Shown here: piece after piece, positions 42,020 through 45,313 of the stretch
How positions within the stretch are numbered: position 1 is the first letter of the stretch
Layout: the number at the start of each line of letters is the position of its first letter
From: a virus
Strand: one strand, 5' to 3'
Length of the DNA stretch: 64,000 nucleotides
IMG/VR virus record: IMGVR_UViG_3300027734_000042
Position numbers and translations under genes: made by a program
The notes under the pieces: generated by a model
Database searches by the model: none
Told to the model about the DNA's origin: nothing
The model's input: only the letters and a program-made list of their open reading frames with translations

Positions 42020-42718
42020 ATGAGAAGAATCCTCGGATGGAGCGAGTTTAAATTATTTGAACAAGTTTATTTAGATAAAGACGAGCCAAAAGGAAATAGT
42101 ATATCGGAAGATGCTTTTAAAAAAATGAGGCTTTGTTGCTTCGATATTATGGGTAAATATCCATTCTTCAGAAAACTTCTTTCCGATTTAGTAATCAGAG
42201 AAAATCGAAATTTGCCATATAAGACGATGGCAACAGATGGTGTTAGCATACACTATGATCCAGGGTTTGTTTTAGCAAAAACCGAGGGCGAAATTATATT
42301 CGTTATATGCCACGAGATAATGCACAACGTATTATTTCACTTTGCTAGAAAAATGCCAGATCCTCAATTATGGAACGTAGCAGCAGATTACGCTTTAAAT
42401 CAATTATTAGAAGGTGTAGGAACAATGCCTAAAGAAGCTCTTTATCCTGGGTGCGGATACCATCCTGATGATAAGAAATTCGTTAATCTATCGTCTGAAC
42501 AAATTTATGAATGGCTAGTTAAGTCTGGTGCTAAACCACCAGATGAACCTGATGGAGGGGGAGAAGGGGATTCTCCCGATTCTGAAATTGTTATTGGTGA
42601 TGTAATTAGAGATACTAAAACAAATACATATGGTGTTGTAAGATCTATTGATCCATCTACTGGAGAAATTGATTTCGATCCTATATCAGAATCTGATGTA
42701 ACTAAATATTTAAAATAA
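42020..42718 (+). CDS. DUF2201 N-terminal-type zincin metallopeptidase (HExxH) with CTS-like tag
   Basis: TMATDG..IHYDPGFV, CHEIMHNVLFH, WNVAADYALNQLL and SSEQIYEWL motifs; starts MRRILGWSEFKLFEQ. Confidence 0.85.
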   Translation: MRRILGWSEFKLFEQVYLDKDEPKGNSISEDAFKKMRLCCFDIMGKYPFFRKLLSDLVIRENRNLPYKTMATDGVSIHYDPGFVLAKTEGEIIFVICHEIMHNVLFHFARKMPDPQLWNVAADYALNQLLEGVGTMPKEALYPGCGYHPDDKKFVNLSSEQIYEWLVKSGAKPPDEPDGGGEGDSPDSEIVIGDVIRDTKTNTYGVVRSIDPSTGEIDFDPISESDVTKYLK

Positions 42719-43765
42719 ATGAAAGCTAAAATTACAGAGGTTAAGAAAATAGTTAGATCTCAAAAAGGACCTGGCTCTGGAGAATCTACTAAGCCACCTA
42801 AAAATACAGAGGGATGGGACGAAGAAGAAGACGAGCCGGGTAATGAAGAGGGTGGAGAAGAAAATGATCCTAACGGGGATTCTAAACCAGGAAAACCCGG
42901 CAAAGATTCAGGTAGTGGAAGAGGTAATGAATTTGAAGAAGTTGATCCTAAAGAACCTGGAGCATCCTATGAAGTTACCCCATGGAAACAGCCATCTGGG
43001 CATACTGTAATAGGTGAAGTATATCCTACCGGATCTCTTGGAGACGGAGAGCCAGGTGACAAAGATCCTGATGCAAAAAAAGATCAATGGAAAGCTGCTA
43101 CAACTGCCGCAGAATCTCAATCGAGAGGTAATATACCTGGTGGTATCAGAGCTGCTTTACAGAGAATGAGAACCGCTGTAGTAGATTGGAGAAAAGAATT
43201 GGAAGTTTTTATAGATGATGCTATTTCTAAAAGTAAATATACTCTTCCTTCCAGAAGATTCCTAGGTGGAGGTAAAGCACAATACGGTTACAAAAGATAC
43301 AAAGAAGATTTCGAATGTGTAGTGGTTGCTATAGATACATCTGGATCTATATCGGATAAGATGGTTGCTCAATTCTTAGGAGAAGCTAAAGCAATAGTTG
43401 ATGCCTATTCGCCACAGGATCTTTATGTTATATTCTGTCACACTGATATCTATAGAGTAGATCATATACAACCAGGTGATCCTATAGATGTAGGAAAGCT
43501 TCAAAGTGGAGGTACCGAATTTTATCCTCCATTTGAATGGACGGAAGAAAATTTATTAGATAAAGGAATAGTACCTTCAGTATTTATTTATTTTACTGAT
43601 GGCGAAGCTACTTTCCCTAATGCTTCTCAATATGGTATAGGTGAGTACGAAGATAAATGTATATGGGTTCTTCTTACGTTTAATGGACAACCATTCAGTA
43701 ACGATATTCCATTTGGTAATAGAATAGATATTACTTTACCCAATAAAGAAGTCACATCCATTTAG
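42719..43765 (+). CDS. DUF2201-type vWA domain protein
   Basis: VDWRKEL, PSRRF, VVAIDTSGSIS (MIDAS), GGTEFYPPF and IYFTDG; G/E/P-rich disordered N-terminus. Confidence 0.85.
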   Translation: MKAKITEVKKIVRSQKGPGSGESTKPPKNTEGWDEEEDEPGNEEGGEENDPNGDSKPGKPGKDSGSGRGNEFEEVDPKEPGASYEVTPWKQPSGHTVIGEVYPTGSLGDGEPGDKDPDAKKDQWKAATTAAESQSRGNIPGGIRAALQRMRTAVVDWRKELEVFIDDAISKSKYTLPSRRFLGGGKAQYGYKRYKEDFECVVVAIDTSGSISDKMVAQFLGEAKAIVDAYSPQDLYVIFCHTDIYRVDHIQPGDPIDVGKLQSGGTEFYPPFEWTEENLLDKGIVPSVFIYFTDGEATFPNASQYGIGEYEDKCIWVLLTFNGQPFSNDIPFGNRIDITLPNKEVTSI

Positions 43766-43773
43766 GATATATA
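43766..43773 (+). promoter_or_regulatory. putative late promoter (GATATATA)
   Basis: Directly after the vWA stop, 22 nt before ATG 43796. Confidence 0.6.
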
Positions 43774-43795
43774 AAGAGAAAATAAAAATAAAAAA

Positions 43796-45313
43796 ATGAA
43801 ACGTATTTACAATTTTAATGAGTTTGTTAACGAAGGATACCTTGAAAGAATTGGCTCAAAGATTTCTGGATGGATGCAATCTTTAAAAACAGCAATAAAA
43901 GACGGATTAGTAAGACTAATACCTTCTGGAGCTAAAGCTGGTAAACCTATGGCTGTTGCATTCGACCCTGATAAAGGATCTATCGAGCAACAACTTTTAG
44001 ATTTCTTTGCTGGTACTCCATATGCAGAGATGGCAAACGAGGCTCAAGTTCCTTTAACTTATCCAAAAAGTGAAGACGTTCTTGACGTTAAAGAGCCGGA
44101 ACTTAAGAAGATGATTAAAACTCGTCTTAAAGCAGTATTAAAAGCTGGCGAGGAAGGAAACAATCAAGGTGTATTAGACGTTAAGCCTATTTTTATTTTC
44201 GGAGCACCTGGTATTGGTAAAACCCAAATCGTTGCTCAAGTATGTGACGAACTAGGGAAAGAAATGTACGGTAAGCCACTAAACTTAGCTTTCGTAGATG
44301 GTGAATTTGCAGAACCAGTTGACTTTGCAGGTGTACCTTCAGTGGTAGACGTTTCAAGTCCTTCAGAAGAAGATCCTTACGGAAGAGGTATTACAAGATC
44401 TAACGTATCTGTAAACCTTTTACCTAATGATAATGGTAAAGATAATATGGGTGGAATTCTTTTTATCGATGAGTTAAATCGTATGCCTCAAGAGGTTATT
44501 AAAGTTTTCATGAAACTTGCACAAAGTAGAAGACTTGGACAAACATATCAAATTCCAAGCAAATGGTATATCGTTGCTGCTGGTAACAGAGCGGAAGATG
44601 ACCCAAGAGAAGTTAAAGCAATGGGTACAGCTCTTAGAGATCGTTTCTCTGTTGTTAATTTTGTACCTACCGTTGCTGGCCTAAGAAAATTCATCGAAGG
44701 TGGCAGATTAAAAAATATTGTTATTCCTGAGTTATTAGACTTCTTAGAATTTCAACAAGAATATTTCCATAACCTTGATCCTGCTAAGCAAATGATTAAA
44801 TATCCAACTCCTAGAGCTTGGACAGATGCTGCAATGGGATTAAGAAGAGTTATGGATGAACTTGCTTCTGAGGGTGTAACCGAATTATCAGATAGAGATA
44901 TTATTAGTGCATTTCAAGTAGAAGTTGGATATGATGCTGCTGCAGCATTTTTAGACTTCTATAAAATTGCAAAAGAAATTCCTGTTAAAGATTTGATGCT
45001 TCCGTTCACTAACCCAGAAAGAGCACCTCTTCCTGACGATAAGAAAGATCCTAAGTCTGGAAGACCAAGAGCTGATTATGCACACGCATTACTTTCTGCT
45101 ATTATTAGAAAAAGTAAAGACACCGAATTAACAGCTACTGAAGTATGTAACTTTGCTAACTACTTACAAAGAGTTAATTCTCCAGAATGGGGTAACGCTG
45201 CTATCTCTAACTTATTTAAAGAGCATGCTTACTTGAAAAAAGATGCTAAAGCAATCCAATGTATAGCTCCTCTAGCTGATAAATGGGGATCAGAGCTTGG
45301 AACGGAATTTTAA
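43796..45313 (+). CDS. MoxR-like AAA+ ATPase with CTS-like tag
   Basis: GAPGIGKT, DFAGVP, ILFIDELNR, VAAGNR, ALRDRF and PTPRAW; starts MKRIYNFNEFVNE. Confidence 0.88.
   Translation: MKRIYNFNEFVNEGYLERIGSKISGWMQSLKTAIKDGLVRLIPSGAKAGKPMAVAFDPDKGSIEQQLLDFFAGTPYAEMANEAQVPLTYPKSEDVLDVKEPELKKMIKTRLKAVLKAGEEGNNQGVLDVKPIFIFGAPGIGKTQIVAQVCDELGKEMYGKPLNLAFVDGEFAEPVDFAGVPSVVDVSSPSEEDPYGRGITRSNVSVNLLPNDNGKDNMGGILFIDELNRMPQEVIKVFMKLAQSRRLGQTYQIPSKWYIVAAGNRAEDDPREVKAMGTALRDRFSVVNFVPTVAGLRKFIEGGRLKNIVIPELLDFLEFQQEYFHNLDPAKQMIKYPTPRAWTDAAMGLRRVMDELASEGVTELSDRDIISAFQVEVGYDAAAAFLDFYKIAKEIPVKDLMLPFTNPERAPLPDDKKDPKSGRPRADYAHALLSAIIRKSKDTELTATEVCNFANYLQRVNSPEWGNAAISNLFKEHAYLKKDAKAIQCIAPLADKWGSELGTEF

Follow-up and report, generated by a model that had tools for sequence, protein, structure and literature searches.

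Within a 64,000-nucleotide (nt) stretch of the IMG/VR virus record IMGVR_UViG_3300027734_000042 (hereafter the window), three adjacent open reading frames (ORFs) encode a zincin metallopeptidase (ORF1), a vWA protein (ORF2) and a MoxR-class AAA+ ATPase (ORF3). We found that ORF1 and ORF2 together carry what is elsewhere a single protein, that the peptidase and the ATPase each begin with a short leader resembling the capsid-targeting sequences of phage T4, and that each of these two genes follows a candidate late promoter. We tentatively propose, at a probability of roughly 0.45, that this split module is expressed late, docks to the prohead through its leaders and helps the head to mature. The window comes from a viral contig of 129.8 kb with a CheckV completeness of 47%. 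We compared the locus in five IMG/VR relatives (L006-L010), whose ATPases share 56-96% identity with ORF3, and took data on the prohead protease and capsid from a 248-kb close relative, G001. The module itself is already known, as gp24/gp25 of phage N4 and as the MoxR-vWA-peptidase pair of jumbo phages; what is new is its split, its reversed gene order and its tags.

Results

Three adjacent genes encode a zincin, a vWA protein and a MoxR-class ATPase

The sequence-only reading of this stretch had described three adjacent genes with intact HExxH, metal-ion-dependent adhesion site (MIDAS) and AAA+ motifs, and Pfam and PHROG matches, together with invariant residues, bear this description out (Table 1). 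ORF1 covers positions 16-135 of the DUF2201_N profile in Pfam (E 5.8e-21). Its HEIMH motif occupies amino acids (aa) 98-102 of the longer segment HEIMHNVLFH (aa 98-107), and H98, E99, H102 and a third histidine, H107, are invariant in 45 homologues, which gives the pattern HExxHxxxxH. ORF2 matches positions 186-261 of the same Pfam profile (E 5.6e-5) and the vWA-like domain DUF2201 (PF09967; E 1.9e-17). Its MIDAS residues are D206-x-S208-x-S210, T266 and D294, and an alignment of metagenomic homologues showed that D206-T-S-G-S210 is invariant and that T293-D294-G295 is invariant or nearly so. Both proteins were modeled with AlphaFold2 (AF2) as the in-frame read-through ORF1-TAA-ORF2 (P0315), in which each part folded with good confidence. 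The ORF1 core has a predicted local distance difference test (pLDDT) score above 90, with low confidence at the first residues, and the ORF2 part adopts a vWA fold with Z scores of up to 13.2, including 11.2 against the VWA domain of NorD. The matches listed in a wide fold search with this model were all vWA.

ORF3 matches AAA_5 (PF07728) over aa 132-284 with 39 bits against a cut-off of 22, and it matches PHROG 1297 with an E value of 1.5e-43. Its motifs comprise a Walker A at aa 136-143 (G136-T143), a Walker B at D225-E226, the sensor-1 residue N264 and the arginine R283. Across 61 sequences, no variation occurs at G136, P138-T143, D225, E226, N264 and R283, and A137 and R340 are almost invariant. 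The AF2 model of ORF3 has a mean pLDDT of 80.7, and a Foldseek search with this model returned NorQ chains as the top 10 matches and CbbQ2 at rank 16 (E 5e-7 to 3e-6). We conclude that ORF3 is a NorQ/CbbQ-like MoxR ATPase and that the catalytic and metal-binding motifs of all three ORFs are under purifying selection. MoxR ATPases are usually hexameric, and by its class ORF3 may likewise form a hexamer, hydrolyze ATP and bind its vWA partner.

The pairs NorQ/NorD and CbbQ/CbbO (PDB 9qh6-9qhg, 6l1q) provide the best folds for ORF3 (Foldseek E 5e-7; template-modeling score 0.56-0.63 over the target) and, like the module described here, combine an AAA+ ring with a MIDAS adaptor; NorQ has been solved with the NorD vWA domain. 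In contrast to the phage module, these pairs lack a peptidase domain and serve to activate or mature metalloenzymes. Their sequence identity to ORF3 is 15-18%, and ORF3 has additional N- and C-terminal regions. For the N-terminal region, an ESM Atlas look-up gave no usable match, and BLAST against all ORFs of the genome revealed no paralogue beyond the leader itself. None of the three proteins has a sequence match in the PDB.

The peptidase and vWA domains are split between two polypeptides

The sequence-only reading stated that DUF2201_N and DUF2201 usually form one polypeptide next to such an ATPase, which agrees with PHROG 1314, with phAPEC6 gp264c/gp265c and with a 491-aa form in LR756500. 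Here, by contrast, the two domains lie on two ORFs, and the 394 positions of PHROG 1314 are cleanly divided, with 9-160 on ORF1 and 161-391 on ORF2. We conclude that ORF1 and ORF2 together carry one ancestral DUF2201_N + DUF2201 protein. The start codon of ORF2 directly follows the stop codon of ORF1, and in the window the two ORFs share a reading frame with a single TAA between them. The peptidase and the vWA protein are nevertheless separate ORFs in all five relatives, with spacers that differ, and in three of the five their counterparts occupy different reading frames, which rules out both a sequencing error and programmed read-through of the TAA. We therefore rejected read-through, and the split is real. 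Stand-alone proteins resembling ORF1 (227-292 aa; about 65 clusters) and ORF2 (about 300-390 aa; more than 100 clusters) also occur in metagenomic data, as do fused forms, represented by LR756500, phAPEC6 gp264c and some distant matches.

Because part of the peptidase domain resides on ORF2 and because the ORF2 start abuts the ORF1 stop, the two polypeptides almost certainly work as one unit, and the same two features make it reasonable that an untagged vWA protein would hitch-hike on its partner, as had been suggested. Split forms also feature two conserved junction elements that are missing from fused homologues. The first is a beta-rich mini-domain at the C-terminus of ORF1 (aa ~186-232; …VGDVIxD…YGxVxSID…GE..YDPI…), and the second is the N-terminal strand of ORF2, MKAKITEVKK, followed by a Gly/Pro-rich linker. 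These elements may form a non-covalent clasp in place of the covalent link. BLAST against all ORFs of the genome revealed no paralogue, beyond the leader itself, of either the mini-domain or the 90-aa protein encoded downstream of ORF3.

The vWA subunit is duplicated in some relatives. L009 encodes two tandem vWA genes (L009:5967-6950 and L009:6954-7961) that are 59% identical, one of which lacks the MIDAS threonine motif, and a second tandem pair (P0252/P0254) is encoded on one 347-kb contig. The pairs are 59-66% identical overall, and one copy of each has the 'GGT' threonine motif of the MIDAS replaced. These sequences suggest that the tandem copies could be alternative or regulatory adaptors for a single peptidase.

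Peptidase and ATPase begin with a leader conserved at the peptide level

ORF1 starts with MRRILGWSEFKLFE and ORF3 with MKRIYNFNEFVNE, whereas ORF2 starts with MKAKITEVKK, which is not a leader; the earlier claim that leaders are present on the peptidase and the ATPase and absent from the vWA protein is thus correct. The leader is approximately 13 residues long, contains an aromatic-x-x-aromatic motif and ends in hydrophobic-x-Glu (V-N-E13 in ORF3 and L-F-E14 in ORF1). A survey of homologous modules for the tag, which the sequence-only reading had proposed, found an [FYVIL][VIL]-N-E ending near residue 13 in 112 of 119 full-length ATPase homologues, down to 34% identity, and an x-[LI]-[FL]-E ending near residue 14 in 57 of 66 homologues of ORF1. 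A second x-x-E site is present within the first 45 residues of 40 ATPase homologues. The leader is missing from outgroup ORF1 homologues, which start about 30 residues nearer the HExxH motif, and from both phAPEC6 gp264c and gp265c.

Other proteins of this phage have the leader as well. The strict leader pattern is present on 16 of the 165 ORFs of the genome, as compared with a background of 1% at internal positions (an approximately 10-fold difference), and a looser reading adds about 8 ORFs. Synonymous codons within the leader vary freely and follow genome-wide usage, which indicates that selection acts on the peptide rather than on the RNA; on this ground an explanation at the level of RNA or DNA was rejected. 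Residues 1-23 of the ORF3 model have pLDDT values below 50, and the leader is accordingly disordered, as expected for a flexible tag. Taken together, these comparisons support the leaders as a real, clade-specific signal that is kept at the peptide level and resembles the T4 capsid-targeting sequence.

To place the leader in the wider family, we used the ORF1 profile in a hidden Markov model search of 1.84 billion cluster representatives, which found 12,247 clusters. Among the best 150 of these, which we inspected, 102 have an N-terminal extension (HExxH at residue 85 or beyond), and 43 of the 102 are fused. Many of the fused forms begin with the same kind of leader, which makes the tag older and more widespread than the split. 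The contig also encodes, outside the window, a second MoxR-class AAA_5 ATPase (323 aa; L001:6631-7602, minus strand) that adjoins a CobT_C/vWA protein (502 aa; L001:4996-6504, minus strand), and together they constitute a CobS/CobT-like pair. Neither protein has a leader, which indicates that the tag is not general to such proteins in this phage.

Leader-like sequences appear in other settings nearby. Three consecutive small proteins encoded at 46978-48087 of the window end with an aromatic-x-x-aromatic motif and basic residues (…WKEYIGKK…, …DYREFISTKK and …MDFKTFLSRGK); this C-terminal motif is kept in all relatives (L006-L010) and resembles the N-terminal leader moved to the C-terminus. A 101-aa ORF on the minus strand (49153-49458) starts with MKKILTFKLFEQVYLNDIK, and its first 18 or so residues nearly equal the ORF1 leader and the residues that follow it (…FKLFEQVYLDKD), so that a leader cassette may have been shared or exchanged between the two genes. 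Outside the window, at the window-equivalent positions 97296-99916 on the minus strand, are five tandem paralogous small genes whose products all start with MTRE[EA]FI….

A putative late promoter precedes the tagged genes

The octamer GATATATA occurs in front of the peptidase gene (site 41998) and the ATPase gene (site 43766), with no copy before ORF2, as the sequence-only reading had also claimed. At ORF1, the octamer is kept at the same place in L006-L010, even inside coding sequence, and at the ATPase gene it is kept in L006-L009, where it is duplicated in one case. Each of the 10 copies on the plus strand of the window is followed by an ORF start at a distance of 12-49 nt. Their total is not enriched, with 11 copies found in the window and 7.1 expected, and it is their placement that is the notable feature. 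The motif (G/A)ATATATA is present 12-30 nt upstream of the genes for the tail sheath, one baseplate protein and two tail-fibre-like proteins in this phage, and in G001 it lies upstream of the operon that encodes the prohead protease and the Gp23 capsid protein. The leader and the motif also go together: the motif precedes 12 of the 16 leader genes of this genome as compared with 17 of the 149 others (Fisher p = 1e-7), and the corresponding counts for G001 are 17 of 24 and 42 of 322 (p = 1.4e-9).

A second, host-like motif has a different distribution. The Bacteroidota-type -7 motif TAnnTTTG is found approximately 30-45 nt before small ORFs at the window-equivalent positions 101000-120000, outside the window, in a block that is probably an early region. 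Only 1 of 165 genes has both (G/A)ATATATA and TAnnTTTG within 100 nt upstream, and the replication genes around the module have neither GATATATA nor TAnnTTTG. The T4-type late promoter is likewise an A/T-rich, -10-only octamer directly upstream of virion genes, with the consensus TATAAATA in T4 in place of GATATATA. A search for a gp55-type late sigma factor with a phAPEC6 query gave no match in G000 or G001, which says little for so divergent a protein. The late promoters that had been claimed for the module thus find support in the placement of the octamer, in its association with virion genes and in the protease/capsid operon of G001, and we consider GATATATA a putative late promoter that is well supported by association.

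Some GATATATA sites lie in the loop of a perfect hairpin (CCTGATGGATATATAATCTATCAGG), as at 46920-46950 of the window, and a similar arrangement is present in G001 (L014 6870-6905).

Leader-bearing genes neighbor the prohead protease and capsid genes of a relative

The capsid-targeting sequences of T4 are N-terminal propeptides of 10-20 residues that attach internal proteins to the scaffolding core (PMC5694885, PMC3012670). They are removed by gp21 after a glutamate and can bring foreign proteins into heads (PMC5694885, PMC3012670). The leader described above has in common with them that it is a short N-terminal sequence shared by unrelated proteins and that it ends in hydrophobic-x-Glu. The T4 sequence reads MKTYQEFIAE and has an aromatic-x-E-F-[IV]-x-E core in common with MKRIYNFNEFVNE. 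In addition, this lineage encodes a gp21-type protease and a Gp23-type capsid protein, as seen in G001. In contrast to T4, the tagged cohort here is far larger and includes AAA+ and kinase-like enzymes, and related motifs are present at C-termini. We regard this likeness in sequence as a strong analogy.

In G001, a T4 gp21-type S77 prohead protease (L014:10268-12301) is joined to approximately 15 copies of the repeat …NISYSEYLAENLD… (in the form …YLAENLD…), each of which contains an L-A-E site. By its sequence, this gene appears to combine a protease with a self-cleaving scaffold. The Gp23-family capsid protein of G001 matches its Pfam profile from residue 98, after a long propeptide that contains …SLNE-SAG… (L-N-E), and we found no gp24-like second capsid paralogue in G001. 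Leader-bearing genes, including one that starts with MKRIKRLEEFESLNEG, lie directly beside these protease and capsid genes. The window's own contig, which is a 47% fragment without head genes, gave no match for the S77 protease or the Gp23 capsid protein.

Related modules are widespread among phages

Homologues of the ATPase are present in 386 phage records and homologues of the peptidase in 276, including those of N4-like, rV5-like and jumbo phages; a DNA search found no DNA-level match to the module in cultured phages. N4 gp24/gp25, phAPEC6 gp265c/gp264c and the families PHROG 1297 and PHROG 1314 encode the same AAA_5, DUF2201_N and DUF2201 domains in neighboring genes, and the HExxH, MIDAS and Walker motifs are intact. 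In those pairs the zincin and vWA domains are on one protein and the ATPase gene comes first, whereas here they are on two genes, each side of the junction has an added element and the order is peptidase-vWA-ATPase. The peptidase and the ATPase described here have leaders, which the phAPEC6 proteins lack, and their own late-type promoters, and the ATPase has an N-terminal extension of about 100 aa. N4 gp24/gp25 belong to the 14-gene core of N4-like phages and are expressed as middle transcripts (PMC4193335). For jumbo phages of group 2.2, Iyer et al. (2021) reported a MoxR-vWA pair that includes an N-terminal metallopeptidase, and they proposed that it is a chaperone/co-chaperone system with peptide cleavage that acts in virion assembly and processing (PMC7824862).

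A viral MoxR/vWA pair is also known from Acidianus two-tailed virus (ATV), in which p618, a MoxR ATPase assigned to particle morphogenesis, is among the major virion components and interacts with the vWA protein p892 (PMC4124505). Virions can thus carry machines of this type. The likeness is at the level of the family. ATV is an archaeal spindle-shaped virus, and its pair has neither a peptidase domain nor a leader like a capsid-targeting sequence.

Genomic setting of the module

The window has a GC content of about 33%. First in its gene order are myovirus tail and baseplate genes (for the baseplate wedge, the tail tube and tail-fibre-like proteins), followed by T4-type replication genes, which encode a gp32-like single-stranded-DNA-binding protein, primase, UvsY, helicase, DNA polymerase, ribonucleotide reductase and topoisomerase II. 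The best cultured relatives of a large structural protein are from the Bacteroidota phages Chryseobacterium MA9V, Tenacibaculum pT24, Flavobacterium MaF61 and Prevotella Lak and from Sphingomonas phage PAU, and the protein further matches uncultured huge phages, LR756500 among them. We accordingly assign the module to a large phage that is T4-like and uncultured. The contigs come from freshwater samples. Replication and nucleotide-metabolism genes surround the module.

The 90-aa gene downstream of ORF3 (Table 1) is kept at the same position in all five relatives. Its product has no match in Pfam, PHROG or the Atlas, and it is possible that the gene is a co-transcribed fourth component of the module. 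Genes with the late motif are scattered across the replication region. One of them, with its own GATATATA site, encodes a collagen-repeat, tail-fibre-like protein of 716 aa (52626-54805) and sits between the genes for the small (51622-52602) and large (55058-57427) subunits of ribonucleotide reductase.

Table 1. Coordinates of the module and adjoining features, as positions in the window
Feature	Position	Strand	Description
GATATATA site	41998..42005	+	22 nt upstream of ORF1; shares sequence with the final codons and the stop (…E-D-I-stop) of the preceding gene, 40024-42006
ORF1 (232 aa)	42020..42718	+	Zincin catalytic lobe of DUF2201_N behind a leader; parts: leader MRRILGWSEFKLFE (aa 1-14), zincin lobe, small C-terminal beta domain (aa ~186-232)
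ORF2 (348 aa)	42719..43765	+	Remainder of DUF2201_N and MIDAS vWA domain; parts: conserved strand MKAKITEVKK, Gly/Pro/acidic low-complexity linker (aa ~15-110), DUF2201_N C-terminal helices (aa 115-185), vWA domain (aa 201-338)
GATATATA site	43766..43773	+	30 nt before the ATPase start
ORF3 (505 aa)	43796..45313	+	MoxR-class AAA+ ATPase; starts 30 nt past the ORF2 end; parts: leader MKRIYNFNEFVNE (aa 1-13), clade-specific N-terminal extension (to aa ~100), AAA+ core, helical C-terminal part
90-aa gene	45317..45589	+	Begins 3 nt past the ATPase stop; lacks a separate promoter motif

Discussion

Based on these findings, we propose that the genes for ORF1, ORF2 and ORF3 would be expressed late and that the leaders would dock the peptidase and the ATPase onto the scaffolding core of the prohead, as capsid-targeting sequences do in T4. 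The gp21-type prohead protease of the lineage would cut the leaders off. The untagged vWA subunit would be carried in bound to ORF1, for which it would supply the missing C-terminal part of the peptidase domain. The MIDAS site would capture an acidic segment of a substrate, the AAA+ ring would pull and the tethered zincin would cut. The homology is most naturally read in this way, with an adaptor, a motor and a protease, as the sequence-only reading had proposed. The favored substrate would be inside the assembling head, as core, scaffold or tagged cargo, and the module may stay as a minor head component once the head has matured. From the sequence evidence, packaging of the module into the head is plausible.

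Several observations weigh against this proposal. The tagged cohort is large, at 16-25 of 165 ORFs, and includes large enzymes. Leader-like motifs are also present at the C-termini of three neighboring small proteins, a placement more in keeping with a general binding motif than with a cleaved propeptide confined to the N-terminus. The protease and capsid data come from a relative, as the contig of the window is a 47% fragment that lacks head genes. The N4 homologues are middle genes, and the virion protein table of N4-like roseophages lists no homologues of gp24/gp25 (PMC4193335). The data for phAPEC6 are mixed: the MoxR ATPase gp265c was detected in purified virions (6 peptides, 19% coverage), a suggestive precedent for our proposal, but the vWA-peptidase gp264c was not, and thymidylate synthase was present in the same preparation, which makes carry-over possible (PMC7247149). 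Finally, the promoter class, the cleavage of the leader and the packaging are each deduced from sequence.

The C-terminal motifs, which are kept in relatives, are the main support for the strongest alternative, namely that the module is a late cytoplasmic chaperone-protease that, as is presumed for its N4-type relatives, works within infected cells, for example in tail, fibre or capsid assembly or in the remodeling of a host complex, and that its leader is not a capsid address. Under this alternative, which we consider less likely than our proposal but a serious rival to it, the leader could, for example, recruit proteins to an assembly site or a common partner, control turnover or act on the nascent chain. 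The location of the module among replication and nucleotide-metabolism genes is consistent with such a role, as are the N4 homologues, which are middle transcripts, core in all N4-like phages and absent from the roseophage virion table (PMC4193335). However, the length of the leader, its position and its closing hydrophobic-x-Glu closely match the T4 capsid-targeting sequence, the leader accompanies the promoter of virion genes, and leader-bearing genes are located inside the head gene cluster beside the gp21-type protease. These points argue against the alternative.

The sequence-only reading had gone further and pictured a head-packaged MoxR/vWA/zincin machine that is injected to disable a host target. 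On this model the machine, assembled or ready for assembly, would be ejected along with the DNA to unfold and cut a protein of the host, for instance a defense factor, as the next infection begins; loaded through T4-like capsid-targeting leaders, it could be one of dozens of tagged cargo enzymes. The module, the leaders and the late motif on which that reading was built are all there, and they count in its favor as much as in favor of head maturation; presence in the virion, injection and the disabling of a host target did not gain support, and we regard the whole as improbable, with injection to disable a host target as its least supported step. There are precedents for propeptide-loaded, ejected enzymes in the T4 internal proteins, in Alt and in the virion RNA polymerases of phiKZ and SPN3US (PMC5694885, PMC3012670), and ATP would be available only after entry into the cell, which would suit an AAA+ effector. 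Against this, the module is core to very different phages (386 records), is untagged in phAPEC6 and is not among the listed virion proteins of the roseophages, a conservation pattern more in line with a function intrinsic to the phage than with a fast-changing weapon against a particular host. Apart from one weak, generic AAA match in PADLOC, which does not tie the module to a defense system, no defense or counter-defense model was matched. In addition, a ring of 505-aa subunits (approximately 340 kDa if hexameric) would have to traverse the tail as separate subunits and reassemble afterwards. Given that phages of very different kinds conserve the module as part of their core, mostly without tags, we rate a phage-intrinsic role such as head maturation as at least as likely as a host-directed weapon, and rank it above.

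The module might instead be the handler of the tagged cohort, with the vWA/zincin part recognizing and trimming the leaders or unloading the tagged proteins, the AAA+ ATPase as motor and the tags on ORF1 and ORF3 serving self-recruitment to the same site. Module and cohort do co-occur and have promoters in common, and many relatives in the ORF1 family, both fused and split, have the leader. This role is nonetheless very unlikely, as cultured phages such as phAPEC6 have the module with no leader on it and the lineage already has a gp21-type protease whose hydrophobic-x-Glu logic matches. It is hardly credible that a sequencing error or gene decay explains the split and that the leaders resemble each other by chance or through the composition of AT-rich gene starts, for although ORF1 and ORF2 share a frame here with one TAA between them, they are split in five relatives with differing spacers and in three with different frames, both halves are large conserved families with invariant active-site residues, and the leader occurs at about 10 times background with varying synonymous sites.

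The pair of a MoxR ATPase and a vWA-peptidase is among the most widespread phage gene sets of yet unassigned function, and the late promoters and the T4-like head-loading leader offer clues to when and where the module acts. They turn the vague label of chaperone into a specific question, which is whether the machine is found in proheads or virions and is trimmed after the glutamate of its leader. The stable split, together with the occasional duplication of the vWA subunit, suggests that the adaptor is exchangeable independently of the protease. Injection of the module, if it occurs, would represent the first case of an AAA+ protease system injected by a bacteriophage; packaging alone, if it proves true, would extend the range of phage head cargo to ATP-driven machines.

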